Assembly: GCA_041675185.1 (NCBI GenBank)
Contig: JBAYUH010000002.1
Coordinates: 1,052 to 65,051, forward strand
Direction of reading: 5' to 3'
Source of the DNA: Candidatus Magasanikiibacteriota bacterium
Lineage (GTDB): Bacteria > Patescibacteriota > Patescibacteriia > Magasanikbacterales > UBA922
Length of the DNA: 64,000 bases
Under the pieces are notes generated by a model, which saw nothing but the letters and a program-made list of their open reading frames with translations, was not told the origin of the DNA and searched no databases. Below, piece after piece: positions 1 to 37,612 of this stretch (position 1 is its first letter; every line of letters begins with the position of its first letter). The translations under genes and the position numbers were made by a program.

Positions 1-601
1 TCCCGAAATAACCGAAAAAATACAAGATGCACCACCAAGAGTAAAAACCGCCAAAAAATACAAAGAGGACAATTTACTAGTCTTTATTAGAAAGTCTGGA
101 AATCTTTATTCCAGAAGTATTAATAATGAAAATAACAAAATTATTGAACATGCAAATTTTGCTGACGTTTTGGAAATGATCAAATGTAAATACGAAGAAA
201 AAAGACAAGATTTATCCGAAACATTTTGGGAGCAATATGTGCAAATTCGTGATCACAATGACAAAGCTAATATACCAACCGGTGAAAATAGTATCGAAAG
301 ACAATCTCTAAATGTTTTACAAGGTTTTGATAGTAATCCACCAGCTAATTTCAATCGGTATCGAAAATTTTTATCTACTCTTTTGGAAGATGCGGCAGAT
401 TATCAAACTCTATCTAAATATACAATGCGTAGAATTGCCAACCTAGATTTTTCTACTAAAAAAGATAAAGAAATAGAAGCAACTAAAAAAGAACTAGATA
501 ATATGATGTTTGAACTTGGTGGAGATAATTATTTAGATGAAATAAAGAAAAAAGGTGATCCACAAAAAGAAGTAATTATTGCGATTGAAAACATAAAATA
601 A
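1..601 (+). CDS. 3' part of a hypothetical protein. The ORF is open to the window's left edge and its stop abuts the start of the downstream methyltransferase
   Basis: Frame 2 is open from position 2 with no stop until 599-601 (TAA). The next gene's ATG is at 603, which implies translational coupling. No recognisable motif. Confidence 0.45.
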   Translation, partial: PEITEKIQDAPPRVKTAKKYKEDNLLVFIRKSGNLYSRSINNENNKIIEHANFADVLEMIKCKYEEKRQDLSETFWEQYVQIRDHNDKANIPTGENSIERQSLNVLQGFDSNPPANFNRYRKFLSTLLEDAADYQTLSKYTMRRIANLDFSTKKDKEIEATKKELDNMMFELGGDNYLDEIKKKGDPQKEVIIAIENIK

Positions 602-602
602 T

Positions 603-3600
603 ATGCCAAAACAGATATTGCAAGACATTATAAACGATTTTTCCTTAGAAAAATTTAATTCTTTTTTTCGTGAAAAATCTGATAAATATAGAGATTTAGA
701 TGAAAGACTATCCAAATATGACAAGGATATTTTTTCTAATTCTACCCGTCTAGGTGTCATAGATTTTGGCGGTCGTACCAAAGATGTGGCTGTAATAGCT
801 GTACAAGTAGCAAAAGATTTAACTGAAAGAACTAGTAAAAAAGCCCAATATGATTTTGCCAAAAATTTATTAAAGCAAGAAGATAAATATGAAGCCGGCA
901 TATTTATTTTTTATGACACAACTGGTAATTTTCGTTTTTCGTTAATTTATCCACAATACCAAGGTAAAAATAGAGTTTGGAATAATTTTAAAAGATTTAC
1001 TCATTTTGTAAGCAAAAAATTGACCAATAAAACTTTTATTACACAGATTGGTAATGGTAATTTTGAAAACATAAATACATTGAAAGAATCATTTAGTGTA
1101 GAAAAAGTTACTAAGGAATTTTTTGCAAACTATAAAAAACTATTTGATAATTTAACAGCACATTTAAACAGTGATGCCTATTTCGACAATTTCGCTAGAA
1201 AAAATGGAATAGATTTAAATATTTTTGCCAAGAAAATTTTGGGTCAAATTGTATTTATTTATTTTTTACAAAAAAGAGGTTGGTTGGGTGCTGAAAAAAA
1301 TAAGCCAGTCGATACTGGTACTATTACCTTTTTAAGAGATCTTTATAATAAATGTGAATCTGATAACAAAAATTATTTTAATGATGTTTTAGAATATTTA
1401 TTCTATGATGCTCTAAACAAAAGACCAGAAAAAATAATTGGTTTTTATAGAGAATATTTTGATTGTCAAATTCCATTTTTAAATGGTGGTTTGTTTGAAC
1501 CGATAAATAATTATAATTGGAAACAAGAATTTTTAAATATTCCAAATAAAATTTTTTCTAACAAGCAAGAAAATGGAATTTTGGATATTTTTGACCAGTA
1601 CAACTTTACTATAGATGAAAATGACAACAGTGATCAAGAAGTGTCTGTTGACCCTGAGATGCTTGGAAAAGTATTTGAAAATTTATTACCAGAAAATATT
1701 CGTAAAGGTCAAGGCGCTTTTTATACACCACGAGAAATAGTTCATTACATGTGTAAAGAAAGTCTTATAAACTATCTTACTAATGAACTTGGTGCAAATG
1801 AAAAGACTGTACGTGATTTTTATGAATGGGATACCTCACCCTTAGACCATTCTGATTTAGAAAATGATGAAAAGGCACAGAAAAAAGTGTTTACATATTG
1901 GGTTTCTGAATTTGATGAATTAATGCCAAAAATGAAGACAGCGTTGCAAAATATAAAGATTGTGGACCCAGCTTGTGGTTCCGGTGCTTTTCTTATTGGC
2001 ATGTTGCAAGAAATTTTAATGTTAAGACATAAAATAAGCATGATATTAGATGAAAAATTTTCAGGCTATGAAGTAAAAAAAGACACAATTCAGAATTGTA
2101 TTTATGGCGTGGATATTGATCCTGGCGCAGTAGATATTGCTAAACTAAGATTATGGCTATCTATTGTGGTAGAACATGATATATCTGAAATAGAACCGCT
2201 ACCAAATTTAGATTATAAAATAATGCAAGGTAATAGTTTGTTAGAAAATTTGATTATTGGTGATAGTGTTATTTCTCTAAATCTTGATGGTAACAAAAAA
2301 ATAGATGGCAGGACAAAGGAGATGAAAAATCTTTTTGACACAAACGATCAAAGTAGAATGACTTTATTTACAGATGAAAAAGCAGTTGCATCTTCCGTAG
2401 ATCAATTAGAAAAACTTCATTCAGTTTTTTTTACTGAGAGCGATCCAGATAAAAAGAAAATTTTAAAAACAAAAATAGACAGCAAAGAAATTGAATTGGT
2501 AGAAAATGCTTGTAAAAATGAAATCACCATATTAGACAATAGAATAAAAAAAGATTTTGAAGATAAAAAGAAATTGCAAAAATATACTGAACAAATTTTG
2601 AATATTAAAAAAGTTTTAAATCAGTTAAAGAAAGATGGGGTTAGACCTTTTTTTCCATGGCATTTACATTTTAGCGATGTTTTCAAAGAAAAAGGTGGGT
2701 TTGATGTGGTAATTGGAAATCCACCATATGGATTTAGGGATGTTTTAACGAATGAAGAGAAAATATATTTTAGAAAAATTGAAAATATCGAATTTAGTAG
2801 TGGTGATGTCGCAGAGCTTTTTTGCAAAAAATCCTTTGATAATTTAGTTGTTAAAAGTGGTATTCTATCATTTATAATCCCCAAAAAATGTACCTATGGT
2901 GATTCATGGGATGGTTGGCGTGTTAATTATTTCCAAAAATATGATCTTCACTTTATTTTAGATTCTGGCAAAGCATTCGATCGAGTTTTACTAGAACAAA
3001 CCGCCTTTGGTCTTGCCAAAAGAAACCAAAGTGGCGATATTCAACTGTGTTTTTTAGATAACAAAATGGACAAAATACATTTATTTGCAAGATCATTAAA
3101 AGAAAAAATATTTAAATCAAACAATACTATACAAATTTATCTTGAATATTTTCCTCGAAGTATATTTGAAAAAATAGTCGCTAAATCAACACCTGAAACT
3201 TTAGTTACTGGAGATTTGGGATTAGGAATTGGTACAGAATTTTTTTCAGATGAAAAAACTGAATATAAATTATTAAAAGGAATAGATATTAGCAGGTGGC
3301 AAGTTCGAAGCCATCGCTTCCTAAAAAATAAAGAGAAACTAAATTGGAATAATGCTAAAAGATTTTTGAGAGCGAAAGTGTTGTGCCAAAGACTGATAGC
3401 TCACATCGAAAATCCAATCCCCCACATAAAAGTGACTGCTTGCTTCGATTCTGAAGGTATAATCATTACTAACACACTAACTGCTTTCAAACTTGATGCT
3501 TCAATAAATGAAAAATTTTGGCTAGGTTATTTAAACTCAAGTTTAGTGAACTGGTTTATATATAATTTTATTTATGGACGCGCAATAAGAGGGATGGATT

Positions 3601-3827
3601 TTTATAGTTTTTATATCGAACAAATTCCTATACCCAAAATTTCTAAAGACCAACAAACGAGTTTTATTGAAATTGTCGATAAAATTCTCACTATTACCTC
3701 AGCCACTAATTATGATCCTAAGAATACACCAATAAAACAAAAAGAATTGGAAAAACAAATTGATGAGCTAGTTTATAAACTCTACAACTTAACAGAAGAA
3801 GAAATAAAAACAATTGAAACGTGTTAA
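603..3827 (+). CDS. Eco57I/MmeI-family (Type IIG-like) restriction-modification enzyme / gamma-class N6-adenine DNA methyltransferase, 1074 aa
   Basis: Carries GQGAFYTPREIV, AdoMet motif I VDPACGSGAFLIGML, and motif IV FDVVIGNPPYG, in the order typical of gamma-class MTases. There is a ~330-aa N-terminal region and a ~370-aa C-terminal region that is a putative target-recognition domain. A coiled-coil insert lies between motifs I and IV. Confidence 0.8.
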   Translation: MPKQILQDIINDFSLEKFNSFFREKSDKYRDLDERLSKYDKDIFSNSTRLGVIDFGGRTKDVAVIAVQVAKDLTERTSKKAQYDFAKNLLKQEDKYEAGIFIFYDTTGNFRFSLIYPQYQGKNRVWNNFKRFTHFVSKKLTNKTFITQIGNGNFENINTLKESFSVEKVTKEFFANYKKLFDNLTAHLNSDAYFDNFARKNGIDLNIFAKKILGQIVFIYFLQKRGWLGAEKNKPVDTGTITFLRDLYNKCESDNKNYFNDVLEYLFYDALNKRPEKIIGFYREYFDCQIPFLNGGLFEPINNYNWKQEFLNIPNKIFSNKQENGILDIFDQYNFTIDENDNSDQEVSVDPEMLGKVFENLLPENIRKGQGAFYTPREIVHYMCKESLINYLTNELGANEKTVRDFYEWDTSPLDHSDLENDEKAQKKVFTYWVSEFDELMPKMKTALQNIKIVDPACGSGAFLIGMLQEILMLRHKISMILDEKFSGYEVKKDTIQNCIYGVDIDPGAVDIAKLRLWLSIVVEHDISEIEPLPNLDYKIMQGNSLLENLIIGDSVISLNLDGNKKIDGRTKEMKNLFDTNDQSRMTLFTDEKAVASSVDQLEKLHSVFFTESDPDKKKILKTKIDSKEIELVENACKNEITILDNRIKKDFEDKKKLQKYTEQILNIKKVLNQLKKDGVRPFFPWHLHFSDVFKEKGGFDVVIGNPPYGFRDVLTNEEKIYFRKIENIEFSSGDVAELFCKKSFDNLVVKSGILSFIIPKKCTYGDSWDGWRVNYFQKYDLHFILDSGKAFDRVLLEQTAFGLAKRNQSGDIQLCFLDNKMDKIHLFARSLKEKIFKSNNTIQIYLEYFPRSIFEKIVAKSTPETLVTGDLGLGIGTEFFSDEKTEYKLLKGIDISRWQVRSHRFLKNKEKLNWNNAKRFLRAKVLCQRLIAHIENPIPHIKVTACFDSEGIIITNTLTAFKLDASINEKFWLGYLNSSLVNWFIYNFIYGRAIRGMDFYSFYIEQIPIPKISKDQQTSFIEIVDKILTITSATNYDPKNTPIKQKELEKQIDELVYKLYNLTEEEIKTIETC

Positions 3828-3834
3828 TAATTTT

Positions 3835-4104
3835 ATGAGTAATTTTTCACCAAAACTTGAAGACGCAACAGACGAGAAATTGATGTACATGATTAACGAA
3901 TTAGATTTTCGGGTTGTTCCACTTGCTTCTGATGAGTTGACGAGGCGCCATTTGGGAAAATTAAGAGAAAATATTGAAAAATTTAACGAACAATCATCAA
4001 AACAGACAAATAAAATGATTCGATTGACCTGGGTAATTGTTTTGTTAACTGTTGTAATGGTTTTTGGCTTAGGTCTACAAATATATTTAGCAATTTATGA
4101 TTAA
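3835..4104 (+). CDS. Small hypothetical protein with a C-terminal transmembrane helix
   Basis: The ORF track start at 3814 is TTG, which sits inside the MTase gene's terminal codons, so the ATG at 3835 is more plausible. The hydrophobic C-terminus reads WVIVLLTVVMVFGLGLQIYLAIY. Confidence 0.4.
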   Translation: MSNFSPKLEDATDEKLMYMINELDFRVVPLASDELTRRHLGKLRENIEKFNEQSSKQTNKMIRLTWVIVLLTVVMVFGLGLQIYLAIYD

Positions 4105-4115
4105 CAAAATATACT

Positions 4116-4400
4116 ATGCCTAAAAAAGAAGATAATAAAACAATTGGTATTAGAATAAGATTTTGGACTAATGATTTACCCGGTAAAGTTGGGAAAGATC
4201 ACAAACAAACTCCATGCTGGAGTTGTGGTGTGGTTATTATAGAAGCTAATAGAACAAAAGGTATTTCATCAGATAGTGAGGTATTCCATTATGTTGATGA
4301 CATTCCAAGAGCTGTTAAAGAAGTAATGAAAAGAGCGAAAATTGCTGTAGTGGAAAATGTGGCTAGTACTGACAGAGCAAAAAAGAGGATAGGAAAATAA
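4116..4400 (+). CDS. Hypothetical 94-aa protein
   Basis: Clean ORF 11 nt after the previous gene. Contains a CWSCG pair and no known motif. Confidence 0.4.
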   Translation: MPKKEDNKTIGIRIRFWTNDLPGKVGKDHKQTPCWSCGVVIIEANRTKGISSDSEVFHYVDDIPRAVKEVMKRAKIAVVENVASTDRAKKRIGK

Positions 4401-4467
4401 TAAATACCTCAGTGGATGTCATTAGTGTTTATGAGTTTTTAAAAAAATATAATTTTATTTTTATATT

Positions 4468-5298
4468 ATGCAAAAACAATTTTTAGTAGGTAGATACTAT
4501 TTCGACACGCTTTTTCGGGATGAAGCTAATAAGTCATTTATTTCTGATTTAACAAAGAAGCCTACTTTTGAAGAAGGTAATATTGGATATGCTTTAGCAA
4601 ATACATCTTTCGAGAAGGTGGGTGAAAGTAAGGAAAGCTTTTTGAGAGGAACATTCGCTAAATTTAAAATTAAGGATTATTACAAAAAATATCTCAAAAA
4701 AGAAAATGGCTTTCAAGAATCCATAACGGATAACAAAGTTGAATCTCAAATTGAATTTTTTCTCCACCATCCGTCCCATCTTATTTTTATTGAAAAATCT
4801 TCACAAATAAGAGAAAATATTTTTAAAAATAAATTCATTAAAATTTACGAAAAAAATACCTCAGTCACCAAGCCAAATATGGGTCTTGATTTTTTATTTG
4901 ATGAAAAAGATGTATATGAAGAAATAAAAAGTTGGGATAGAATAGTTAAAGCTAAATTTAATGATTTACGACCATCTAACCCGCGAATGGATCCACACTT
5001 TGAAAAAATTGAGGAATTATTAAAGGAAACAAAAAGTGATCGTTCTAAATTAGAATTTAAAATTGATGATCCAGATAGCACTAATTCCCTCGATTCAGAA
5101 AGTGTACTTATTAAACAAGCTCTCGCTTTGTCATCATATGGATATGGGAATGCAAATTTTGATGGGTTTAAAGGTAAAAATACAACTAATATCAAAACAA
5201 AAAAGTTTGTTAAATCAGTAAAACTTGATTTTGATTCAGAAACTCCCTTTAGTGTTGTAATAGATTTTATTGAAAAAGACGAAAAAGGAGAAATGTGA
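4468..5298 (+). CDS. Hypothetical 276-aa protein
   Basis: Long ORF in AT-rich context, same strand and operon-like spacing. No recognisable motif. Confidence 0.5.
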   Translation: MQKQFLVGRYYFDTLFRDEANKSFISDLTKKPTFEEGNIGYALANTSFEKVGESKESFLRGTFAKFKIKDYYKKYLKKENGFQESITDNKVESQIEFFLHHPSHLIFIEKSSQIRENIFKNKFIKIYEKNTSVTKPNMGLDFLFDEKDVYEEIKSWDRIVKAKFNDLRPSNPRMDPHFEKIEELLKETKSDRSKLEFKIDDPDSTNSLDSESVLIKQALALSSYGYGNANFDGFKGKNTTNIKTKKFVKSVKLDFDSETPFSVVIDFIEKDEKGEM

Positions 5299-5311
5299 TA
5301 TAATACTAGAT

Positions 5312-5842
5312 ATGAGTACTAATCTTGAAAAAAAATTTGGGTTTTTCTCAAAGATGTTCCAATTTGGTATTGGTAATATTTTTATTTCCCTTGATTTTTT
5401 TGTTGCTTTTTTAGTACTAATACTTTTATTTATTGATAATCACTTTAATTTAAAAATTTTTATTTCGATTGCAGAGGAAAGAAATGCCTATGTTCAGGTT
5501 ATTTTAAGTGCTTCTTCGATTCTTTTTGCACTCATTACCACTGCATTATCTATTATTTTATCTTTCTCAACTAGTAACTTTATCAAATTTTTAAAGAAAA
5601 AAGACATGCTAGATAGCGTACTTTTCCCTTTTTGGTTAGGAAATGCAATTTATCTTTTTACTATAATACTTTCCATTGTATATCTTCTACTAGAGCCGGC
5701 GACATGGATAAAAATAATACCATTTTTATTCATGTTTATAATTTTTTTGTTTATATATGCTATTGGTATTACTTTTTCCTTATTACGAACCATAATTCGT
5801 ATTGGTGAATGGATAGCTCAAAATGATGAAGATTTGGCGTAA
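5312..5842 (+). CDS. Hypothetical polytopic membrane protein (~176 aa)
   Basis: ATG at 5312 (the track start at 5270 is TTG and overlaps the previous gene). At least four hydrophobic helices. Confidence 0.45.
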   Translation: MSTNLEKKFGFFSKMFQFGIGNIFISLDFFVAFLVLILLFIDNHFNLKIFISIAEERNAYVQVILSASSILFALITTALSIILSFSTSNFIKFLKKKDMLDSVLFPFWLGNAIYLFTIILSIVYLLLEPATWIKIIPFLFMFIIFLFIYAIGITFSLLRTIIRIGEWIAQNDEDLA

Positions 5843-5934
5843 CGTCTTATTCAGTTCGAACAAAACGATATGGCTACAGGGGACATTCTCCCCTTTAATT
5901 CCCCTCTGTCCCCTTCCGCTATATTGACGAACGC

Positions 5935-5944
5935 CCCCCCCCCC
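5935..5944. repeat. C10 homopolymer tract inside a C-rich non-coding spacer
   Basis: The sequence gaacgccccccccccttcccc is seen directly and is unusual in this AT-rich genome. Confidence 0.9.
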
Positions 5945-6200
5945 TTCCCCTCTTTAATAAAATGGTAAAAACAAAAGACGAAAAAATAATTTACATCTGA
6001 TAACAGCCGATATATGATTACGCTCCCCACTAACGTGCGGTCGCTCCATCCATATCCCGTATTCTCGGGACATCATATATCGGCGTACGTTAGCTGAAAT
6101 AAAATTTTTACACTTTTTGTTTTTTGTGATTGAGTGATTGGCGAGGGCGAGGCTTTTATCTCTTTTATTCCTATCTTCCCTACCAAAAAAGCACTTTCCT

Positions 6201-6230
6201 TTGCGCGTATCTTGCGCGTATCTTGCGCGA
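6201..6230 (+). repeat. 11-bp direct repeat ttgcgcgtatc x2.7 overlapping the -35 of the fic promoter (candidate operator)
   Basis: ttgcgcgtatc ttgcgcgtatc ttgcgcga, seen directly. Confidence 0.8.
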
Positions 6231-6251
6231 ACCGCTGTTTTGTGATATAAT
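6223..6251 (+). promoter_or_regulatory. Sigma70-like promoter for fic: -35 ttgcgc, 17-bp spacer, extended -10 tgtgatataat
   Basis: Consensus-like hexamers with a TG extension 28 nt upstream of the ATG at 6279. Confidence 0.55.
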
Positions 6252-6278
6252 ACTGGTGTAACTTAAAAAACATATAAT

Positions 6279-7334
6279 ATGTTTAATCCTAAATACAAGC
6301 ACACTAATAAAATTTTACTCGACCTCACTGCTATCGCCGAGGCCAAGGGCATTATTGACCGTGCCAAAATTTTACCACAACAAGAAATAAAACTACGTCG
6401 ACAAGCCATTATCCGTATGACCCACCACTCTACCGAGATTGAAGGCAATAAATTAAATATGGGGCAGGTGGAAGCACTTTATGCTAAGAAAAAAGTAGAT
6501 GCGCCAGACAGGGATATTTACGAAGTAAAAAATTATCTCAACGCTTTAAAATTTATTGAAAAAGTTGTAATTGAACATAAACCAATAACTAAAAAAATAA
6601 TTTTAAAAATACATAAATTAGTCGCTGATAAAACTTTGGCACCGCAATATTGTGGGCATTTCCGCCCAGGACCAATTTATGTGGTTCGTCGACGTTTGGG
6701 CATGCCACAAGAAACTCTATACACCGGACCAGAAGCCAAGCGCGTGCCACAGCTTATAACCGAATTTATCGCATGGCTTAAAGAAAGCGAAAAACAAGAA
6801 ATAAGTCCAGTACTTGTAGCTGCTATTGCTCACATGGAAATCGCCGCTATTCACCCTTTTAACGACGGCAACGGTCGTACAGCTCGCGCTTTAGCCACTT
6901 TGATTCTTTACCAGCGTGGATACGATTTTCGTCGATTATTTGCATTGGAAGATTTTTATAATACTGACCGACCATCATATTACAAGGCCATCAACTTGGG
7001 TAAAACTTATGATGAACGACGTACAGACATTACATCGTGGTTAGAATATTTCGTAAAAGGATTTAAGAAAGAAATTGATGAGGTAAAAAACAAAGTCTTG
7101 CCATTATCTACTCGCAATGTTGACGGGAAAATTAAATCACAAATTTATCTCACTCCAGAACAATTAAAAATTATTGACTTCTTAGATCAAGTTGGAAGAA
7201 TTGTTGTAAAAGATGTCGAGGACATTTTATCTTGTCCACGCCGATCTGCACAGTTACAATTACAAAAATTAAAGAAAATTAAAATGATTAAAGCGATGGG
7301 TAAAGGAAAAACCACCGCCTACATTGCCAACTAA
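6279..7334 (+). CDS. fic: Fic-family protein (AMPylase/adenylyltransferase), class II autoinhibited, with C-terminal winged-helix domain (SoFic-like)
   Basis: Canonical Fic motif HPFNDGNGRTARAL (HxFx[DE]GNGRxxR). The N-terminal inhibitory motif STEIEGN matches [ST]xxxE[GN]. Length is 351 aa, and GC is noticeably higher than in neighbouring genes. Confidence 0.85.
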   Translation: MFNPKYKHTNKILLDLTAIAEAKGIIDRAKILPQQEIKLRRQAIIRMTHHSTEIEGNKLNMGQVEALYAKKKVDAPDRDIYEVKNYLNALKFIEKVVIEHKPITKKIILKIHKLVADKTLAPQYCGHFRPGPIYVVRRRLGMPQETLYTGPEAKRVPQLITEFIAWLKESEKQEISPVLVAAIAHMEIAAIHPFNDGNGRTARALATLILYQRGYDFRRLFALEDFYNTDRPSYYKAINLGKTYDERRTDITSWLEYFVKGFKKEIDEVKNKVLPLSTRNVDGKIKSQIYLTPEQLKIIDFLDQVGRIVVKDVEDILSCPRRSAQLQLQKLKKIKMIKAMGKGKTTAYIAN

Positions 7335-7353
7335 TAAAGCAATACAGCTACAT

Positions 7354-7818
7354 ATGAACTACAAACACACTCAAATTGGTTACCTGATGCTGGTTGTTAC
7401 GCTGGCCGTGCTGGTGATTTTCGTAAGATCTCATATCATGTCCGCCTCCGAGGTCCCTTCGGTTGATTCAGGCACAAATTTTGCAGTTACTTCCATAATG
7501 ACATTAATTCTATTTATTCTTACTTCCTTTGGGTCGCTTCAAGTAATTATTGACGAAAAATATTTACGAATCAAATTTGGCTATGGTATTTATCATAAAA
7601 AGTTTTCACTTGATGATATAATGTCTGCCAAAACCGTAAAGAATCATTGGTATTATGGATGGGGAATAAGAAGATGGTTGTGGCCAAAGATGTGGATTTA
7701 CAATGTTTCTGGTTTTGATGCGGTAGAAATAAAACTGAAAAATGGTAAAACGTACAGGATAGGCACCGATGAACCAAAAAAATTAGAACAAACAATTATT
7801 CATTCAATTAAATTATGA
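7354..7818 (+). CDS. Hypothetical membrane protein (two TM helices plus a soluble C-terminal domain)
   Basis: ATG at 7354 (the track start at 7324 is TTG overlapping the fic stop). Hydrophobic segments. Confidence 0.4.
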   Translation: MNYKHTQIGYLMLVVTLAVLVIFVRSHIMSASEVPSVDSGTNFAVTSIMTLILFILTSFGSLQVIIDEKYLRIKFGYGIYHKKFSLDDIMSAKTVKNHWYYGWGIRRWLWPKMWIYNVSGFDAVEIKLKNGKTYRIGTDEPKKLEQTIIHSIKL

Positions 7819-8081
7819 AAATTTTTATCGCTTCATTCATCACTATTTTTTTGGCAGAACTTGGTGACAAAACACAAATTGCCACATTATTATTTGCAGC
7901 AAACAAAGATCATTCCAAGCTAATAATCTTCCTTGGTGCAGCTTCAGCATTAGTCTTGACCAGTGCGATTGGTGTGCTGCTTGGAAGTACTTTATCTAAC
8001 TTTATAGATGAAAAAACACTAAAAATTATTGGCGGTGTAGGATTTCTTATTGTAGGTGTCTGGACAATTCTTTCGAAATAA
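7815..8081 (+). CDS. UPF0016/GDT1(TMEM165)-family half-size cation transporter subunit (88 aa)
   Basis: Signature E-x-G-D-K-T ([11 protein letters not shown]) plus three TM helices. Confidence 0.6.
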
Positions 8082-8119
8082 ATAAAAACATAATTTATAT
8101 AATCAATAACTACAGATAT

Positions 8120-8509
8120 ATGTTCAAAGAATTCAAAGAATTTGCAATAAAAGGCAACATGATCGACATGGCTGTCGGTATCATTATAGGATCTGCTTTT
8201 GGAAAAATCGTAAGCTCTCTCGTGAAAGACATTATTATGCCACCAATTGGAGTATTGTTGGGTGGTATAGACTTCTCCAACTTAGTCGTAACACTCAAAC
8301 AAGCTACCGAAACAACTGAAGCCGTAACTCTAAACTACGGAATGTTTGTCAACACAATAATTGATTTTTTGATAATTGCTTTTACTATATTTATAGTAGT
8401 CAAACAAATTAATAAATTAAAAAAGAAGAAAGAAGAAAAAAAGACAGACAAGACAACCGAAGAAGTACTACTTCTCAGAGAAATTAGAGATCAACTAAAA
8501 ACAAAATAA
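8120..8509 (+). CDS. mscL: Large-conductance mechanosensitive channel MscL
   Basis: The N-terminus [35 protein letters not shown] is the classic MscL sequence. Confidence 0.85.
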
Positions 8510-8763
8510 AATCACAACAGCTAAATAGCTCAAATCTGTTGGTTCAAGATTGTTCAAAGGCAGATATTCATCCATATTTTGCGTTACTACCTACATACCA
8601 ACAAACACTTCACAAAACAACAGACACACAAATAAAATAAAAATAAATTATTATATTTTTGTTTTTTATAATTGAGCAATCAAAACGATTTGCTATTGCT
8701 AAATTGTCAAAATAGGAATAATATACCTATAGTTAAAGACCTTAATTAACTTAATACGATTAT

Positions 8764-9531
8764 ATGAAAACACGAACAAGCATTTTATTATTTTCTTTTG
8801 TAGCAGGTATTACTTTATTAGGTGCTGGTTGTACCAACAACACTGATATTGTCATCCCTCCAGAAACAGCAACACAACCAACTGCTATTCAAAACAACCC
8901 AACACCACAACCAATAGTTAAACCATACATAAAAGTAATCTACCCAAATGGCAACGAAATATTTAACCCAGGACAAATCGTTACCATAAAATGGGATTCA
9001 GATGGCGTTGACAAAATCTATTTAAGTATGGTAAACGGAGGGAAAGAATTTGGACAAATCGCAGAAAACAGTATTGATGCCAGTCTCAAAGAATATACCT
9101 GGACAGTACCTGACAATTTCGCAGGAGTAGAGTCTGGATACAAAATATTTATTAGTAATAACTCTGTAAACGAAGATATTCGTGATTCTTCTAACGGAAC
9201 ATTTAGTATTAAATCTGCTCCAGTTGCTGTCCAACCATTCTTAAAATTAACAGCACCGACAGGCGATCAACAATTTAAAATTGGTCAGAAAGTAACTATC
9301 AGTTGGACATCCAGTGGTGTAAACAAAGTTTATCTTAGTCTTGTCAACGGCGGGAAAGAATTTGGACAGATCACAGAAAACGGTATTGATGCCTCACTTG
9401 GCAAATATGAATGGACTGTCCCAGACATGTCGGACTTGGGCACAACTGGTTACAAAATTTTCATAACCAACAATGAAGCAGTCAATGAATTACGCGACTC
9501 ATCTTCTGTATCATTTTCGATTGTTAAATAA
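8764..9531 (+). CDS. Secreted lipoprotein with two tandem ~108-aa Ser/Thr-rich 'GPI-anchored/Kre9_KNH-like' (PF10342-type) domains
   Basis: Signal peptide plus lipobox LGAGC. There are two internal repeats, each beginning KIYLSMVNGGKEFGQI / KVYLSLVNGGKEFGQI and about 60% identical. Confidence 0.55.
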   Translation: MKTRTSILLFSFVAGITLLGAGCTNNTDIVIPPETATQPTAIQNNPTPQPIVKPYIKVIYPNGNEIFNPGQIVTIKWDSDGVDKIYLSMVNGGKEFGQIAENSIDASLKEYTWTVPDNFAGVESGYKIFISNNSVNEDIRDSSNGTFSIKSAPVAVQPFLKLTAPTGDQQFKIGQKVTISWTSSGVNKVYLSLVNGGKEFGQITENGIDASLGKYEWTVPDMSDLGTTGYKIFITNNEAVNELRDSSSVSFSIVK

Positions 9532-17558: not shown

Positions 17559-18311
17559 TCAGCGAACAATGAGCTGTTTCAACTCCTTCTTGGAGTTGCA
17601 TACTACTACATTACTCAGACCACGTCCTTTGTTGTTCACTGCCTCAACATTGTCGAGGCTGATATCAAACCTACTCATCTTTGTTTCGGGAAAGTCAAAC
17701 CATCCGACTAACGCAAAAATGTGTCCAGTGTCTGGAATACTAATATGTACCTGGGCATCACTAACTGCCGGCTGGGGCAGATAGACAACACCCCCGACAC
17801 CTTGAGTGAGTGGTTGGACAAAACCACCGCTGACAAAAGGATGATTACCATCCATTGTGTCGTTGTCCAGAATTTCAAATGCGATAATGTTCGCATTATC
17901 ATCATCTTTGTGGAAAAAGCTATAGACCATATCCTCGTCATGATTCCCCTGAGGAACCTCGACGCGGACAGACACACTCTCCACAAATGTTTGTTGATGA
18001 TCGCAGGGTGTTACCATGAACTTCAGCAGAACAGCCTGCTCATCAATCAACACATTGTCGTTCTCTCGAGGGATAATACTAACCACAAAATCCTTACCAG
18101 TACTCTGACAGAGGTGTTTTACCTCCTCATAAGAAACTGGACAATTGATGGTGTTAACGATTTCAACAGAATGTTGCGGGACAGTCTGTTGATGATTGGT
18201 TGAAGTGGTGTTTCCATCATCCTCGCATCCAAGGGCGAAGAAAGAAACAAGAAAAGCGGCAAAAAAACGTGACAACATAAAGCACTCTTTTCCTCTTGAA
18301 GTGACTTTCAA
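17559..18311 (-). CDS. Hypothetical lipoprotein encoded in a GC-rich, compositionally atypical segment
   Basis: Signal peptide plus lipobox FALGC. GC content and codon usage (GAC, CTC, GGC codons) differ from the surrounding genes. Both strands are open here, as expected for higher-GC DNA. Confidence 0.5.
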   Translation of the reverse strand: MKVTSRGKECFMLSRFFAAFLVSFFALGCEDDGNTTSTNHQQTVPQHSVEIVNTINCPVSYEEVKHLCQSTGKDFVVSIIPRENDNVLIDEQAVLLKFMVTPCDHQQTFVESVSVRVEVPQGNHDEDMVYSFFHKDDDNANIIAFEILDNDTMDGNHPFVSGGFVQPLTQGVGGVVYLPQPAVSDAQVHISIPDTGHIFALVGWFDFPETKMSRFDISLDNVEAVNNKGRGLSNVVVCNSKKELKQLIVR

Positions 18312-29477: not shown

Positions 29478-32400
29478 TTATTTTGTAGCAACAGTTTCTT
29501 CTTCAACTTTATTAGCATGCTTTTCTTCCAATTCTGGAATACCAGAAATACCAGTCCCAGCAGATATTAGACGACCGATAATCACATTTTCTTTTAGACC
29601 TTCTAGATAATCTATTTTACCAGTGATAGCGGCTGAAACAAGTACACGAGATGTTTCTTGGAAAGAAGCAGCTGATAAGAAACTTTGAGTGGTAAGAGAA
29701 ATTTTACTAATACCCATAAGCATCTCACGAGCTTTGGCCAATTTGACACCATCTTTTTTGGCTTGTCTGTTGGCAATAATAAGTTGTGATTTTTCTACAA
29801 TTTCGCCAGGAAGCAAATCTGTGTCTCCTGGATCTTCTACGAAGACACGACTAAACATTTGTTTGATAATGATTTCAATATGTTTATCATTCAATCTTTG
29901 ACCTTGTGAAGCATAGATTTCTTGAATTTCAGCAAGTACATATCTCTTGACAGCATCTTGACCTTTTAATTCAAATAATTCTTTTAGATCAATAGCGCCT
30001 TCAGTAAGTTGGTCACCTTTTTCTACTTGTTCACTGTCAGTAACCCACAATTTATAACCTACAGGGATGACATATTCTTTAGTAGTCTTACCATCATAGA
30101 TAAGAACCAAATTATCACCATCTACACGGATAACACCAGGATAAAGAGCTTTCATTTCTTCTCCTGAACCACCACGGATGACGATTTTATCACCTTTTTT
30201 AATTTTTTGACCATCGGCCACTTTGACATCATCTTCTTTGTTGATTTCAAAAATCATTTCTTCTGTACCTTCATGATGTACTTTGACAATTTTTTGTCCA
30301 CGACGTCCTTCAAATATTTTTCTACCAGTTGCACTAGTAATAATTTTACCATCAGCATCTTCAATTTCTATTTTACCAGCGACTTCAGACAAAATAGCTT
30401 TACGTTTTGGATTGCGAGCTTCAAACAATTCTTCTACACGAGGCAAACCTTGTGTAATATCTCCACCACCAGCCACACCACCCAAATGGAAAGTACGCAT
30501 AGTGAGCTGAGTACCAGGTTCACCAATGGATTGGGCAGCAATCACACCAACAGCAGTACCAGTCTTTACAGGTTTACGATTACTAAGATCAAAACCATAA
30601 CATTTGGTACAAACACCCTTTGGCAATTGGCATTGTAAAATAGAACGAACATGAATATTGTCTACTTCTTCTTTTTCAATAGCACGACCTGCTTGTGCAT
30701 CCACCACTTCACCAGCTTTGACAATTATTTTGTTACCTTTTTTGACATCAACCAAGACATAACGACCAAGTACACGTTCTGATAATTTTTCTCCCATTTG
30801 TTTGGATTGTTCTAGAGTAAACAATTCACCTACGGTATCACCACAATCTTCTTCTTTGACTACTACTTCTTGAGCAACATCCACTAGACGACGAGTAAGA
30901 TAACCAGCATTAGCAGTACGAAGCGCCATATCTGACAAACCTTTTCTAGTACCATGAGATGAGATAAAGAATTCCAAAACTCCGAAGCCTTCTTTGAAAT
31001 TTCCTTTTACTGGCAACTCAATAACATCTCCAGAAGGAGAAGCTACAAGACCTTTCATAGCAATAACTTGTCCCAACTGACCCCAACTACCACGAGCACC
31101 AGAATCAATCATAGCAAAGACTGATTTGCCTTGATCCATTACTTCTCTACCCATAGAAACCAATTGTTCTTTGGTTTCAGTCCAAATTTCTAGTACTTTT
31201 CCATGACGTTCAGAATCAGTCAACAAACCTTCAGCATATTGCTCTTCTACCAACACAACTTTCTTGTCAGCTTCAAGCAATATTTCTTTTTTAGCAGGAA
31301 TAGATGGGAAATCACTTTTACCAAGTGAATAACCTGATTTAGTTACATATTTATAACCAAGATCTTTTATTTTATCCAAATGTTCAGCAGTAATTTCTTG
31401 TCCATAAAATTCCAACAAAAGTTGAATGATATTACTCAAATCTTTTTTAGTTACAGTTTGATTATAGTAAGCGATTTTATCTGGAAAAATTTCATTGAAC
31501 AAAATTCTACCAAAACTAGTCGCAACAATCTTTGAAGTGCCTTCTTCAAATTTATTTAAATCATCAAATCTAACTTTGACATTTTCACGAAGACCAATCA
31601 CACCAGTCTTATAAGCATATCTAGCTTCAGTAATACTAGAAAATACTTTAAGTTTTGTTTGATCAGCATCTTCATTTTCTATTTTTGTCATGTAATAACA
31701 ACCAAGAGCAATATCTTGTTGAGGAGTAGTCACTGGAGCACCAGTAGCTGGTTTCAAAAGATTCTTTTCTGAGGCTAACAAATTTTCAGCTTCCCATTTT
31801 GCTTGTTCAGAAAGTGGCAAATGAACAGCCATTTGATCTCCATCAAAGTCAGCATTGAAAGCCGCACAAACAAGAGGGTGAAGACGAATAGCTTTACCTT
31901 CTACCAAAGTAGGACGAAAAGCTTGAATACCAAGTCTGTGCAAAGTAGGAGCACGATTTAGAAGTACACGAGTTTTTTTGGTCAATTCTTCCAAAATATC
32001 CCAAACTTCAGAAGCATTACTTTCGATAAACCTAGAAGCACTACGAACATTGTGTGCAAATTCACGTTTGATAATTTCAGACATAACAAACGGTTTGAAA
32101 AGTTCAAGAGCAATCATTTTTGGCAAGCCACACTCACTAATTTTTAAATTAGGTCCAACTACGATGACAGAACGACCAGAATAGTCAACACGTTTACCAA
32201 GCAAATTTTGACGAAAACGACCCTGTTTACCTTTCAAAATATCAGCTAGAGAACGTAATTGTCGTTTTTGTCCAGTTGAGGCACGAACAGTCTTGGTAGC
32301 ACGAGCATTGTTGTCAATAAGAGCGTCAACTGCTTCTTGTAACATGCGTTTTTCATTACGACAAATGACTTCTGGAGCATTGAGATCAAGAAGACGACGT

Positions 32401-33401
32401 AGACGATTGTTTCTATTGATAACACGACGATACAAATCATTCAAATCAGAAGTAGCAAAACGTCCTCCATCAAGAGCAACCATCGGACGTAAATCTGGTG
32501 GAACTACAGGAAGATTGGTCAAAATCATCCATTCTGGACGAATAGCATTTTTTTGCAAACTCTTCAACAATTTGATACGACGCATGAGACGTTCACGCTT
32601 AGCACCTTTACTTTTTTTGAGCTCAGTCTCTAATCTTTTGCCAGTTTCTTCAAAATCCAATCTTTCTAGCAAACCTCGAATAGCCCCAGCACCAATACCA
32701 GCCTCAAACAAATGACCATAACGCAAAGACAAATTTTGATAACGTGATTCTGAAATAATATTAAGCATTGTAATATCTTTCAATTCTTCTTCAGCATCTG
32801 TGAAATCTTCTTCCAAAGATTCTATTTTTCTATCACGTTCTGTTTCTAATTCGGTAATAACTAGAGGAGTAGCTCCAGCTGATTTGCGAGTAAATTCAGA
32901 TTCAATTTCTTTTTTCTTTGTTTTGTATTCTTTTTTTAGAGAGTCGCCTACTATTTTCTTTTCATTTTCATCAACATGAGTAATGATGAAAGAAGCAAAA
33001 TAAATAACTCTTTCCAAAGCTTGGATAGACAAATCAAGCACTAGACCAACACGTGAAGGAATAGTACGCAAAAACCAAATATGAGAGACAGGTGAAGCCA
33101 GTTCAATGTGACCCATACGTTCACGACGAACAAGTGAATGAGTAACTTCTACTCCACATTTATCGCAAACAATTCCTTTGTAACGAATTTTTTTGTATTT
33201 TCCACAATAACATTCCCAATCTTTAGTTGGTCCAAAAATTTCTTCAGCAAACAGACCACCTTTTTCAGGTTTCTGAGTACGATAGTTGATAGTTTCAGGT
33301 TTGTAAACTTCTCCAAAAGACCAATTACGAATAGTCTCCGGTGAAGCGACTTTGAGACGCAAGGCGTCAAAGTTCATAGAATGAAAGGTATCGCGTGACA
33401 T
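29478..33401 (-). CDS. rpoC: DNA-directed RNA polymerase subunit beta'
   Basis: NADFDGDQMAVH catalytic motif, zinc-finger Cys cluster CGKYKKIRYKGIVCDKCG, and trigger loop/bridge helix; 1307 aa. Confidence 0.95.
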   Translation of the reverse strand: MSRDTFHSMNFDALRLKVASPETIRNWSFGEVYKPETINYRTQKPEKGGLFAEEIFGPTKDWECYCGKYKKIRYKGIVCDKCGVEVTHSLVRRERMGHIELASPVSHIWFLRTIPSRVGLVLDLSIQALERVIYFASFIITHVDENEKKIVGDSLKKEYKTKKKEIESEFTRKSAGATPLVITELETERDRKIESLEEDFTDAEEELKDITMLNIISESRYQNLSLRYGHLFEAGIGAGAIRGLLERLDFEETGKRLETELKKSKGAKRERLMRRIKLLKSLQKNAIRPEWMILTNLPVVPPDLRPMVALDGGRFATSDLNDLYRRVINRNNRLRRLLDLNAPEVICRNEKRMLQEAVDALIDNNARATKTVRASTGQKRQLRSLADILKGKQGRFRQNLLGKRVDYSGRSVIVVGPNLKISECGLPKMIALELFKPFVMSEIIKREFAHNVRSASRFIESNASEVWDILEELTKKTRVLLNRAPTLHRLGIQAFRPTLVEGKAIRLHPLVCAAFNADFDGDQMAVHLPLSEQAKWEAENLLASEKNLLKPATGAPVTTPQQDIALGCYYMTKIENEDADQTKLKVFSSITEARYAYKTGVIGLRENVKVRFDDLNKFEEGTSKIVATSFGRILFNEIFPDKIAYYNQTVTKKDLSNIIQLLLEFYGQEITAEHLDKIKDLGYKYVTKSGYSLGKSDFPSIPAKKEILLEADKKVVLVEEQYAEGLLTDSERHGKVLEIWTETKEQLVSMGREVMDQGKSVFAMIDSGARGSWGQLGQVIAMKGLVASPSGDVIELPVKGNFKEGFGVLEFFISSHGTRKGLSDMALRTANAGYLTRRLVDVAQEVVVKEEDCGDTVGELFTLEQSKQMGEKLSERVLGRYVLVDVKKGNKIIVKAGEVVDAQAGRAIEKEEVDNIHVRSILQCQLPKGVCTKCYGFDLSNRKPVKTGTAVGVIAAQSIGEPGTQLTMRTFHLGGVAGGGDITQGLPRVEELFEARNPKRKAILSEVAGKIEIEDADGKIITSATGRKIFEGRRGQKIVKVHHEGTEEMIFEINKEDDVKVADGQKIKKGDKIVIRGGSGEEMKALYPGVIRVDGDNLVLIYDGKTTKEYVIPVGYKLWVTDSEQVEKGDQLTEGAIDLKELFELKGQDAVKRYVLAEIQEIYASQGQRLNDKHIEIIIKQMFSRVFVEDPGDTDLLPGEIVEKSQLIIANRQAKKDGVKLAKAREMLMGISKISLTTQSFLSAASFQETSRVLVSAAITGKIDYLEGLKENVIIGRLISAGTGISGIPELEEKHANKVEEETVATK

Positions 33402-33448: not shown

Positions 33449-36400
33449 TTATTCTGTATCTCTTTCTCTTCCTACCATATTATTATTTATATCAGCAAAT
33501 TTGTATTCTTTTTCTTTTTTGTTTGTTTCTTGCACTTCTATATATTCATCATTGTCATTTTTCTTTAATAACTCTACATCCAAACACAAACCTTTCATTT
33601 CACGTACCAAAACATTGAATGATTCTGGCAAGTTTACTTTGGTAATAGGTTCACCTTTGATAATAGCTTCATAAGCTTTTGATCTACCAGGGACATCATC
33701 AGATTTGATAGTCAAAATTTCTTGCAAACTATAAGCAGCGCCATAAGCTTGCAAAGCCCAAACTTCCATTTCTCCAAAACGTTGTCCACCGAATTGTGCT
33801 TTACCTCCCAATGGTTGTTGGGTGATGAGACTATAAGGACCAATAGAACGTTGGTGAATTTTATCTTCGACCATGTGGTTCAATTTGAGCATGTAGTTGT
33901 AACCAACAGTAGTCTTATTATCATAAGGTTCACCAGTACGACCATCGTAAAGTTGTAATTGTCCATCTAGTGGGAAACCAGCTTCAGTAAGTTCATCTTC
34001 AATTTGTTTTTCTGTAATACCATTCAACACTGGAGTAGCAACTTTGTGACCAAGAGCATTGGCAGCAAGACCAAGATGAGTTTCTAACAATTGTCCTAAA
34101 TTCATACGAGAAACCACACCAAGTGGAGACAAAATAATATCTACAGGAGTACCATCTTCCAAGAAAGGCATATCACCTGCTGGCACCACACGAGAGATAA
34201 CACCTTTGTTACCATGACGACCAGCCATTTTATCACCGACTTGAATTTTTCTCATATCAGCAACAGTGATTTGTACTTGTTTGATAACACCAGGTTGTAG
34301 TTTGTCACCTTGTTCTGTAGAAAATATTTTGACATCAATTACTTTTCCTTGTTCACCATGTTCTAGATAAAGTGAAGAATCACGAACATCACGAGCTTTT
34401 TCACCAAAGATAGCACGAAGCAATCTTTCTTCTGGGGTAAGTTCTGTTTCACCTTTTGGAGTAATTTTGCCAACAAGAATATCACCTGAACGAACTTCAG
34501 CGCCAATACGTACGATACCTTCAGAATCTAAATGGCGTAACTTCTCTTCACTAACATTTGGAATATCTGAGGTAATTACTTCTTCACCAAGTTTTGTCTC
34601 ACGAACATTGATAGTATAATCTTCAATATGAATAGAAGTATAACGATCATCACGAACCAATCTTTCAGAAACAATAATAGCATCTTCATAGTTGAAACCT
34701 TCCCAAACCATATAAGCTACCAACACATTTTGTCCCAAAGAAAGTTCAGCATCTTTGATAGCTGGACCATCAGACATTGGATCACCTTTTTTCAATTTTT
34801 GACCAAGGCTAACTGTTGGACGTTGATTAATACTACTTGAAGCATTTGATCTAATATATTTTGACAAACTGTAAGTAGTCACTTTTCCTTTGGTATCAGT
34901 AAATTCAATTTTACCACCATCTACAAAAGTCACTTCACCATTGGCTGGAGCAGTAAAAACATAACCACTATTTAGAGCAGCAATACGTTCAACACCTGTA
35001 CCAACCAAAGGAGGCTCTGGCTTGATACAAGGTACAGCTTGACGTTGCATGTTGGTACCCATAAGAGCACGAGTAGCATCATCATGTTCCAAAAATGGAA
35101 TAAGACTAGTAGCTACTGACAAAATTTGATTTGAAGCTACATCAATATAAGCAACTTTGTCTGAATCAATAAGTTGAGGTTCACCATTTACACGAGAAGA
35201 AATTCTATCTTCAAGGAAATATCCATCTTTATCCATTGGAGTAGTGGCACTAGAAGTAATTGTTCTTTCTTCTTGAAAAGAATTGAGGTAGACAACTTCA
35301 CTAGAAACACGAGGTTTTACTTTTATTTCTGTAAGACCTTTTTCTTTTTCCAATTTCTTAGCAATAGTACTGTCAATTTTTTCACCAACTTTGACAATAC
35401 CTTTCACTTCCATATTAGAAATTTCACCTTCAGTAAAACTGGCTTCATTTTTGACAACACTAATAACTTTTTTGTAAGGAGTTTCCAAGAAACCAAATTT
35501 ATTTATTTTTGCAAAAGTGGACAAATGTCCGACTAGACCAATGTTTGGTCCTTCAGGAGTAGCAATCGGACAAATACGACCATAATGAGTTCTATGCACA
35601 TCACGAACTTCGAAACCAGCTCGATCACGAGACAAACCACCAGGTCCAAGAGCAGAAATACGACGTTTGTGTTCAAGTTCTGCAAGAGGATTGATCTGAT
35701 CCATGAATTGAGAAAGCTGTGAACTCATAAAAAATTCACGAATGACAGAAATGACAGGACGAGCATTGATCAATTTGTTTGGTACAATAGTGTCAATATC
35801 CATAGTACTCATACGATCACGAATAATACGTTCCATACGAGCAAGACCAATACGAAAACGATTTTGGACAAGTTCACCAACACCACGAACACGACGATTT
35901 CCTAAATGATCAATATCATCAGCTTCTTCTTGGGTCACATTTAGACGAATAATTTCACGCAAAACTTTTACCAATTTATCTTTTGACAAAACTCTTTTTT
36001 CTTTGTCATCATAATCTTCTTTGGTAAGACCCAAATTGAATTTTATATCAAATTTGTAAACACCAACTTTGCCAAGATCATAGCGATCAAAGTTGAAAAA
36101 CATAGCGTGAATAAGACTCTTTGCATTGTCAGCAGTAGCCAAATCACCTGGACGAATACGTCTGTATACTTCTATCAAACCTTCATCTTCATTGGTAGCA
36201 GCATCTTTTTTCAAAGTGTTTTCAATGTAATCAATATTTGGGTGATTATTTACATCAGTAAATAATTCTTTTATTTCTTCATCAGTAGAAAACCCAAAAG
36301 CACGCAAAAGTGAAGTTGCAGCTACTTTACGTTTTCTGTCTACTTTGATCCAAAGTACGTTATTTTGATCAGTTTCAATTTCTACCCAAGCACCACGATT

Positions 36401-36895: not shown

Positions 36896-37570
36896 AAATA
36901 TTTTTATTTATGTAAATAACTTCAAGTTGTTAAACTACCCGCTATTTCCTACAAAAGATTAGTCACAATCTTCCAATAGTTTGTCACGTCTAGTTTATTA
37001 ACTAATTTTAGTAATCAAATTTTGATTATTTAATTAGTCAACAAAGCTAAATTATAAATAAAATTTTATTTTTTAAAATAAATAATTTTATGGCTCACTA
37101 CAGCAACAAAAAAATTCCTTTATTTGAAAAAGGGATTAATTTTTTGATTATTTGTGACAGAAAGCTTGTTGAGCCATGTTGATCCGGATAGTCCGTCCCC
37201 TGCGTGGACGCTAATATAGGGGCGATAATACCAGAATTTGGGCTAAATATAGCAAATTTTGCGCAAATTCAACGAAGTTTTGATAATGTGTTTAGAATAC
37301 ATCAAAAATGAACTCTTGTCAAACAGAGAACAGGTGGATAAGTATTTGTCAAGAAAAGGCTTTTTTGGCTTATACTAGCAAAAATATAAAATTAACCTCA
37401 AAAAGTACTATAAGTTAACCACAGATTTATCCACAAAATAATACCTTAAATAAAGCAAGAACAAGTAAATTTGTCAAGAAGTAAAAACAGGCAATAAACC
37501 TAGATAAAATACAATAAACAATCATATTGTGTGAAATTTGTTTATTAATTATTCAAAAATAACTTCAGAC

Positions 37571-37600
37571 TTCGACTTCATTACAAAACTGTGCTATAAT
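37571..37600 (+). promoter_or_regulatory. Candidate promoter for ftsK (-35 ttcgac, 18-bp spacer, extended -10 tgctataat). It would give a near-leaderless transcript, with the ATG 13 nt downstream of the -10
   Basis: Hexamers seen directly. Confidence 0.4.
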
Positions 37601-37612
37601 GTTTGCACAAGT

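Follow-up and report, generated by a model that had tools for sequence, protein, structure and literature searches.

A Fic protein with a C-terminal winged helix-turn-helix domain and a conserved triple direct repeat at its promoter in Patescibacteria

A gene for a Fic protein (fic) that is preceded by direct repeats lying over its own promoter raises two questions: what binds the repeats, and was the gene inherited with its host or acquired on a mobile or defense-associated element? We examined such a locus at positions 6201 to 7334 of a 64-kb stretch of DNA (64,000 nucleotides of contig JBAYUH010000002.1, positions 1,052 to 65,051; here, "the window") from a Candidatus Magasanikiibacteriota bacterium. 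An earlier sequence-only reading had described a stand-alone, self-inhibited class II Fic enzyme with a winged helix-turn-helix (wHTH) tail and a repeat-covered promoter suggestive of autoregulation, and had taken its GC content and its position next to a restriction-modification (RM) cluster as signs of acquisition. What is new here is an ultra-conserved, vertically inherited Patescibacteria clade of Fic-wHTH proteins, resembling SoFic and CccR, with a rigid candidate operator of three direct repeats.

The fic promoter, its repeats and the encoded protein

The promoter, the repeats and the coding sequence lie as follows (coordinates in the window).

6201..6233, plus strand: three head-to-tail 11-bp units, candidate operator (Tandem Repeats Finder and in-register reading)
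6223..6228, plus strand: −35-like hexamer TTGCGC, the first six bases of unit 3 (17-bp spacer to the −10)
6243..6251, plus strand: extended −10, TGaTATAAT (from the sequence; TG at 6243-6244, TATAAT at 6246-6251)
6279..7334, plus strand: coding sequence of the class II Fic protein with C-terminal wHTH (translation, Pfam, profiles, AlphaFold2 [AF2], Foldseek)
6429..6449, plus strand: inhibitory-helix motif STEIEGN (residues 51-57, with E55 as the inhibitory glutamate)
6852..6893, plus strand: Fic active-site motif HPFNDGNGRTARAL (residues 192-205)
7155..7328, plus strand: wHTH domain (residues 293-350; AF2, Foldseek and weak profile matches)

Tandem Repeats Finder reports the unit TTGCGCGTATC with a period of 11, 2.6 copies and a 100% match at 6201-6229. 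Read in register, the units are TTGCGCGTATC (6201-6211), TTGCGCGTATC (6212-6222) and TTGCGCGAACC (6223-6233), each with the 7-bp core TTGCGCG followed by an A/T-rich tail of 4 bp. The two-unit pattern has two matches in the window, both at fic, compared with 0.01 expected by chance. The sigma70 promoter (TTGCGC, 17 bp, TGaTATAAT) was found as previously described, and the 11-bp repeats do run over its −35, with unit 3 itself supplying the TTGCGC. The promoter was not listed by a consensus scanner, because TTGCGC fits TTGACA at only three of six positions. Transcription is predicted to start near 6258, giving a leader of ~20 nt, with ~27 nt from the −10 to the ATG and no clear Shine-Dalgarno sequence in the leader of the window's fic. 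In the divergent orthologs at loci L031, L033, L037, L038, L048 and L050, only 6 to 7 nt separate the end of the −10 from the ATG, and the Fic mRNAs would thus be leaderless. Two minus-strand open reading frames (ORFs), at 6073-6273 and 6263-6448, were treated as spurious; they lie across the conserved promoter and the coding sequence.

To follow the repeats beyond the window, we pooled genome and metagenome loci that hold both the triplet and a Fic ORF (134 loci with 120 unique promoters). Where the sequence-only reading had allowed for the repeat being absent from orthologous promoters, the opposite was found: no ortholog with upstream sequence lacks the repeats, although two loci have two units and one has a 12-bp step. 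Of the 120 unique promoters, 104 have 17 bp between the unit-3 TTGCGC and the −10, 55 have TATAAT as the −10 and 78 have TG at −15/−14; the core positions of the units carry at least 1.8 bits. The TGCGCG core is kept in 329 of 342 units. The 4-bp tail differs between genomes, but in 99 of 114 cases a locus has the same sequence in units 1 and 2, compared with 15.5% between loci. As the repeats are kept in noncoding DNA while synonymous sites are saturated, the element must be under strong selection, and comparative sequence evidence strongly supports its being a functional promoter element. A repeat arising by neutral slippage was ruled out by this conservation.

The ORF at 6279-7334 (stop codon included) encodes 351 amino acids (aa). 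The Pfam Fic/Fido profile (PF02661) scores 65.3 bits against a cutoff of 24 and is covered as a whole by residues 102-210. The active-site motif that had been read from the sequence is indeed intact: HPFNDGNGR (residues 192-200) fits HPFx[D/E]GN[G/K]R and is invariant within the clade. The STEIEGN motif lies N-terminal to the Fic core on the same polypeptide, at the end of a helix predicted at residues 33-54 (AF2). S51, T52, E53, I54, E55, G56 and N57 are unchanged across 25 clade members, and among 72 sequences reaching down to 26% identity, conservation of E55 and G56 is 90% or higher.

An AF2 run on 25 sequences, all at least 79% identical, was unusable (predicted local distance difference test score [pLDDT], 48.6); the model used here was built from a 72-sequence alignment of 26-89% identity taken from a 50%-cluster search and has a pLDDT of 93.8. 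It places helices at 293-305, 310-317 and 321-333 and strands at 337-340 and 347-350 in the C-terminal domain, making the proposed winged helix a wHTH with recognition helix 321-333 (RRSAQLQLQKLKK) and wing 337-350 (IKAMGKGKTTAYIA), joined to the Fic core by a low-confidence linker at 281-287. With this model, Foldseek gives full-length matches (350-370 columns) to 4RGL, CbFic2 (8CIL), CccR (7XUX), 7CB8 and SoFic (3EQX/3ZEC), which are two-domain Fic+HTH proteins. A phmmer search against PDB sequences returned Fic proteins, with the 8CIL (CbFic2) and 7CB8 alignments reaching the C-terminal domain, and a profile of that domain alone has weak matches to wHTH proteins. Both SoFic profiles align nearly end to end: residues 18-349 match positions 34-347 of 361 in NCBIfam NF046030, and residues 17-350 match positions 34-351 of 361 in PADLOC PDLC03963 (E = 4.6e-52). 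The NCBIfam score of 68.5 bits misses the equivalog cutoff of 550 bits, indicating a distant relative of SoFic and not an equivalog.

No separate antitoxin gene is conserved beside fic, and no neighboring gene is common to more than 5 of 60 loci, bearing out the description of the gene as stand-alone. Past the fic stop codons, no relatedness was found between the loci except for a hairpin described below. As judged from the sequence and the predicted fold, then, the protein is a self-inhibited class II Fic AMP-transferase with a C-terminal wHTH, in a SoFic-like arrangement with the inhibitory motif in cis, as had been proposed. The enzyme is probably also a de-AMPylase.

Candidate binders of the repeats

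The best explanation of the locus, and one that we consider probable, is that the wHTH domains of this class II Fic protein bind the three sites and repress its own promoter; we infer self-binding, repression and any coupling to catalysis. The gene has its own strong extended −10 promoter, with three TTGCGCG-N4 sites, one helical turn apart, spanning from the −35 to ~−65 and the third site forming the −35 hexamer. The wHTH domains would occupy the sites next to one another along the same DNA face and thereby shut the promoter, and this negative autoregulation would keep the amount of a potentially toxic enzyme low and fixed. As CbFic2 and SoFic suggest by analogy, assembly on DNA may in addition set the oligomeric state and, with it, how far AMPylation or de-AMPylation prevails. 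With three direct sites at intervals of one helical turn, the domains would bind head to tail along one DNA face, an arrangement that differs from that of CccR and, going by the model, probably relies on the flexible linker.

There are precedents for this scheme. CccR uses its C-terminal HTH to repress its own promoter, at inverted repeats with a spacing of 26 bp (PMC9755527). SoFic binds the 100 bp ahead of its own gene, and dimerization is needed for this (bioRxiv 10.64898/2026.07.09.737422). CbFic2 is switched between AMPylase and de-AMPylase by DNA binding (PMC10628234).

The sequences of the repeats and of the wHTH domain vary together. As outgroups, we used Fic-wHTH relatives at 41-45% identity, whose contigs were fetched by the encoded protein. 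In outgroups L182, L184 and L187, TGCGCGATT-like units are shifted onto the spacer or the −10. Outgroup L191 has three copies of GGCACGATT ahead of a TTGACA (930-1000), an adjacent paralog (L191:2216) has four copies of TTAGGTTA (2130-2215) and L185 has three copies of GGTAAYGAATA (1460-1500). Direct-repeat operators thus seem, from these sequences, to be a general trait of this Fic subfamily. The recognition helix starts with P[KR]R[ST]AQ in proteins with TGCGCG units and with SPRTAN, SNKSAY or similar in proteins with other repeats. Within the clade, wing residue 344 is K with GAAT or GTAT tails (49 of 50) and P or R with GATT tails (54 of 60), and outgroups with GATT tails also carry P at this residue. 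This pairing of residue 344 with the tail is suggestive. The autoregulation reading is therefore strengthened, in that the triplet is conserved, dedicated to Fic and varies with the wHTH; binding is inferred from these patterns and from analogy.

A different view is that another regulator, either OmpR/PhoB-type or specific to the clade, binds the repeats and activates from the −35, with Fic as a mere target. The pho box consists of 11-bp direct repeats, each with a 7-bp core and a 4-bp A/T-rich tail, on which winged helices assemble head to tail at the −35. The 11-bp period, the 7+4 unit and the −35 position of the fic repeats all resemble this box as it is generally known for PhoB, and TTGCGC is a weak −35 (three of six positions) that would fit the need for a separate activator. 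On the other hand, an extended consensus −10 needs no activator, and outgroup units over the spacer or the −10 are incompatible with activation. Repression therefore appears more likely than activation, because the −10 is near consensus and extended and because the outgroup units slide onto the spacer or the −10. The repeats changing along with the Fic recognition helix also speaks against a separate regulator.

The distribution of the triplet bears on both views. The two-unit pattern was not found away from fic in ~590 kb of genome loci or in the window, and the motif is almost confined to Fic in more than 1.2 Mb of related loci, which would be unusual for a general regulator. Among metagenomic triplets with room downstream, a Fic ortholog comes next in 98 of 116; the other 18 lie upstream of other genes or of nothing, which counts in favor of a separate regulator. 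The genes that follow them share no theme (a 2-hydroxyacid dehydrogenase, a Bro-N-like ORF, unknowns or nothing), and their being mutually unrelated speaks against such a regulator. Triplets of this kind occur in L062, L079, L099/L163, L131, L138 and L159 and in other metagenome loci, and they may be remnants or extra targets. Altogether, we consider a separate activator unlikely.

Binding by Fic itself also has evidence against it, to which the 18 triplets that have no Fic gene next to them belong. A site centered on the −35 is the classic position of a class II activator, such as PhoB. Known Fic-HTH proteins are symmetric dimers, unlike three direct repeats, so a linker or a different oligomer would be needed. 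Furthermore, the covariation between protein and operator has few independent contrasts and is confounded by phylogeny; the same confounding applies to a mutual-information scan that compared operator class with the columns of the protein alignment and in which the C-terminal domain was only slightly enriched (0.183 versus 0.156-0.167).

The TGCGCG cores could instead act through DNA structure: as alternating pyrimidine-purine tracts, they might form a sensor, for example a supercoiling-dependent B-to-Z transition read by a Z-alpha-like wHTH. Each unit does contain a perfect 6-bp alternating tract, and the best PDB matches of the C-terminal profile, although weak, are the Z-alpha domains of PKZ (E = 0.002) and ADAR1. 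A structural resemblance to Z-alpha was remarked on for CbFic2 as well by its authors, yet CbFic2 induced no Z-DNA (PMC10628234). The E values of the Z-alpha matches are marginal, and by our reading of the alignment the Z-alpha signature residues are not kept, with the helix-3 Tyr aligning with Q329 and the PPxW wing being absent. The strict 17-bp register with the −10 fits sequence-specific promoter control instead. We regard a structure sensor as very improbable.

Inheritance and surroundings of fic

A scan of one genome per GTDB species yielded 59 fic loci, all in Patescibacteria-type metagenome-assembled genomes, some of whose labels are unreliable. The best 120 homologs are all full length and 79-97% identical, and the names of their source bins are Magasanik-, Kuenen-, Falkow-, Uhr-, Buchanan-, Moran- and Peregrinibacteria. 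Clustering at 50% identity collapses the clade to one representative (61% identity), with the next relatives at 45%. Between the closest orthologs (92-94% aa identity), synonymous divergence (dS) is already 0.83-1.05 (from ~0.8), with saturation beyond, and the ratio of nonsynonymous to synonymous change (omega) of fic is ~0.03-0.05.

For comparison with core genes, we used loci in which the contig of fic also holds such genes. In a comparison of 15 genome pairs, the pairwise identity of Fic rises with that of RecA (r = 0.96) and exceeds it in 13 pairs. Fic is more conserved than the core proteins encoded on its contig, as the following identities illustrate.

L001: Fic 94%; RecA 81%, FtsK 58%
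L018: Fic 84.6%; RpoB 74.7%, RecA 78.3%
L058: Fic 80.6%; RecA 72.6%, RpoB 68.9%, RpoC 56.3%
L042: Fic 63.9%; RecA 61.6%

A first synteny test with the first 14 kb of the window found nothing shared, and a blast search with the whole window then revealed an rpoBC/ftsK/recA neighborhood. The order rpoB/rpoC, fic, ftsK, recA occurs in L001/L164, L018, L019, L042 and L058/L104, with partial versions in L175 and L112. In the window, rpoC (29478-33401), rpoB (33449-36895), ftsK (37538-40084) and recA (42478-43533) are present, and fic stands 23 kb from them, beside the RM block. These comparisons show that fic has not spread recently, with sequence evidence pointing to vertical inheritance across Patescibacteria. 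On the same evidence, it looks like an inherited core regulator that is kept more strictly than RecA.

The GC and third-position GC (GC3) contents of fic are 0.374 and 0.311, against means of 0.333 and 0.237 (GC3 standard deviation, 0.052) over 50 window ORFs. The higher GC content on which the idea of acquisition had partly rested is thus real, but it is modest and inside the spread of the window's genes (for GC, z = 1.3, rank 3 of 50; for GC3, z = 1.4, rank 5 of 50). From locus to locus, the GC3 of fic rises with that of the host (r = 0.68; slope, 0.47), and the damped slope may reflect strong constraint on the protein sequence. Adjacency to an RM gene is likewise genuine in the window, where the upstream neighbor at 603-3827 is a type IIG RM enzyme, but among the 60 loci it was found next to fic only here.

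These data bear on a further alternative, namely, that fic is a SoFic-type single-gene abortive-infection system, horizontally acquired and sitting in a defense island beside the type IIG enzyme. SoFic has been described as a toxic anti-phage protein (PMC12249575). PADLOC, whose SoFic model fits the full length of the protein, files the SoFic family as an anti-phage system, fic starts 440 bp past the block that opens with the RM gene and its GC content, being on the high side, would fit acquisition. Against an acquired defense gene stand the RecA-tracking identities, the low omega with saturated dS and the single cluster at 50% identity, a pattern opposite to the patchy, fast-moving distribution of defense genes; elsewhere, fic lies between rpoBC and ftsK-recA with no recurring RM neighbor. 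Plasmids and phages hold no close homolog (best matches, at most 28.6% identical), and no close copy was found on viral contigs. Three viral contigs fit a degenerate triplet pattern, none of them followed by Fic, and two of the three matches are unrelated T-rich units (TTTTGCGCG). There was no match to integrase or transposase families among the ORFs scanned from 170 to 9531 (Pfam, NCBIfam and PADLOC), and no AS1-like small ORF is conserved downstream of fic. A vertically inherited fic could, strictly speaking, still serve in defense. We consider an acquired defense system quite unlikely, and the proposal of mobile or defense-associated acquisition is not upheld: the composition of fic is ordinary for the window, and the rpoBC-fic-ftsK-recA order is kept in several genomes.

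A second element, a hairpin, was noticed near fic.

5866..5925, plus strand: hairpin with covarying stem and C-rich loop (AUUCNCCCCU-N-CCCCUCU), after the ORF at 5270-5842

The hairpin has a folding energy of −20.1 kcal/mol (z = −4.1). Its 16-bp stem differs completely between genomes yet stays paired, while its loop is invariant (AUUCACCCCU, 2 to 6 nt and CCCCUCU, often with AAUAAGGAG ahead). In 20 instances, 15 of 16 pairs have changes on both sides, and covariation is 0.636, compared with at most 0.26 in slid controls and 0.19 in shuffles. A covariance model (R1) finds 30 copies in the loci and scores 49.9 bits in the window. All 18 hairpins of Fic-oriented genome loci are on the Fic strand, and for 21 of 25 checked copies, the stop codon of an ORF in the same orientation lies 0 to 37 nt ahead; that ORF is Fic for over half of the 21 and an unrelated gene for the rest. 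Rfam has no family matching this hairpin or the second one described below. In sequence terms, the C-rich-loop hairpin behaves like a candidate new 3′-end RNA motif of Patescibacteria. A genome-wide repetitive extragenic palindromic element was rejected, as there is one hairpin copy in 64 kb. An integron attC-like site was also rejected: stem ends such as GTTTTGG...CCAAAAC and ATGGC...GCCAT do not fit RYYYAAC...GTTRRRY, and the preceding genes are unrelated. Further copies include those at L012:4343-4398, L057:1867-1922 and 4181-4236, L028:3668-3722 and L013:7061-7116.

In the close relatives L003, L007, L034 and L174, the hairpin comes directly after the Fic stop codon; it precedes Fic in the window, and copies are on both sides of Fic in L020. 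A C-run, CGCCCCCCCCCCCTTCCCCTC, with its flanks (window 5926-6013, plus strand) is homologous (72-74% over 111 nt) to sequence flanking Fic on its 3′ side in L007 and L110. That sequence downstream of Fic in close relatives is found upstream here fits a local rearrangement. A second hairpin at ~6006-6094 (plus strand; gccgatatatgat...atcatatatcggc; −36.5 kcal/mol; z = −4.7) lies between the C-rich hairpin and the repeats, and the adjoining stretch 6070-6132 is 87% identical to L137:6136-6198. L012 has a distant Fic paralog (3242-4342; 367 aa; 31% identity) 1.7 kb upstream of the conserved Fic, lacking TTGCGCG repeats and with a C-rich-loop hairpin directly after it.

Elsewhere in the window, four ORFs of 96, 94, 276 and 190 aa lie between the type IIG RM gene and fic (3814-5842, plus strand) and have no match in Pfam, NCBIfam or PADLOC; the 190-aa ORF directly ahead of fic (5270-5842) looks membrane associated from its sequence. 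Cumulative GC skew peaks near 5-6 kb (a change of sign between 1-6000 and 6000-37000), and gene orientation turns from plus to minus near 10.2 kb. This may mark a replication-related boundary or may be an effect of the low-GC RM block (GC, 0.27-0.29) at 603-5842. The strongest compositional outlier of the window is a 250-aa ORF at 17559-18311 (minus strand; GC and GC3 both 0.44), which has no Pfam match.

Meaning and comparison with known systems

What might such a protein do? Tentatively, and as a proposal that we ourselves rate as rather doubtful, fic could be a lineage-wide housekeeping switch, constrained as strongly as RecA, and not a defense toxin, acting by reversible AMPylation of a core protein, with the operator setting its level and, through head-to-tail assembly of the protein on DNA, toggling it between AMPylating and de-AMPylating states. 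Our best guess for the target, by analogy with SoFic, would be EF-Tu; AMPylation of EF-Tu switch I together with anti-phage protection is known only for the SoFic proteins of Escherichia coli and Shewanella oneidensis. If this is true, these ultra-small, host-dependent bacteria would have a built-in control of growth or dormancy. That Fic evolves more slowly than RecA and RpoB over much of Patescibacteria is unexpected for a family mostly treated as toxins, effectors or defense proteins and points to an important, unstudied form of posttranslational control in regulator-poor organisms.

To our knowledge, contact between Fic-wHTH proteins and their own promoters has been shown only recently, and we know of no sequence-defined operator family. 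The clade offers a testable one, with a 7-bp core repeated three times, a fixed promoter register, tail and wing variants and differing outgroups. Among the papers returned by a full-text literature search, none connects Fic proteins with Patescibacteria, which is not proof of novelty.

Among known proteins, SoFic (S. oneidensis SO_4266; PDB 3EQX/3ZEC) shares the whole plan, with an inhibitory helix at the N terminus, then the Fic core and a wHTH at the C terminus, in ~350-370 aa. It also binds DNA just upstream of its own gene, where the candidate sites lie here. SoFic is, however, only ~20% identical to the Patescibacteria protein and is not known to have a defined operator, whereas a fixed triple direct repeat marks the Patescibacteria clade. 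It is treated as a sporadic defense gene, in contrast to the vertical, RecA-level conservation of the clade. CccR (Yersinia pseudotuberculosis; 7XUX) likewise joins Fic to a C-terminal HTH and has a repeat operator at its own −35/−10. Its operator differs: a back-to-back dimer binds two 10-bp repeats that are inverted and spaced by 26 bp, instead of the three direct 11-bp repeats seen here. Furthermore, CccR is a type VI secretion system effector that AMPylates FtsZ, and there is no hint of secretion here.

CbFic2 (Coxiella burnetii; 8CIL) is a class II Fic protein with a DeoR/Z-alpha-like wHTH that aligns with residues 131-348 of our protein. Unlike the Patescibacteria protein with its specific, conserved candidate site, it shows no sequence specificity in binding DNA, and its substrate is host histone H3. 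FICD/HYPE, the metazoan class II Fic, shares strong similarity in the Fic core (E, ~1e-17) and the logic of the inhibitory glutamate, which makes FICD bifunctional, but it has tetratricopeptide repeats and a membrane anchor, lacks a wHTH and targets BiP. The pho box of PhoB, as it is generally known, shares the operator architecture only. It has two units, serves an activator regulon and accompanies a poor promoter, whereas the fic repeats form three units at an extended −10 and belong to a single gene.

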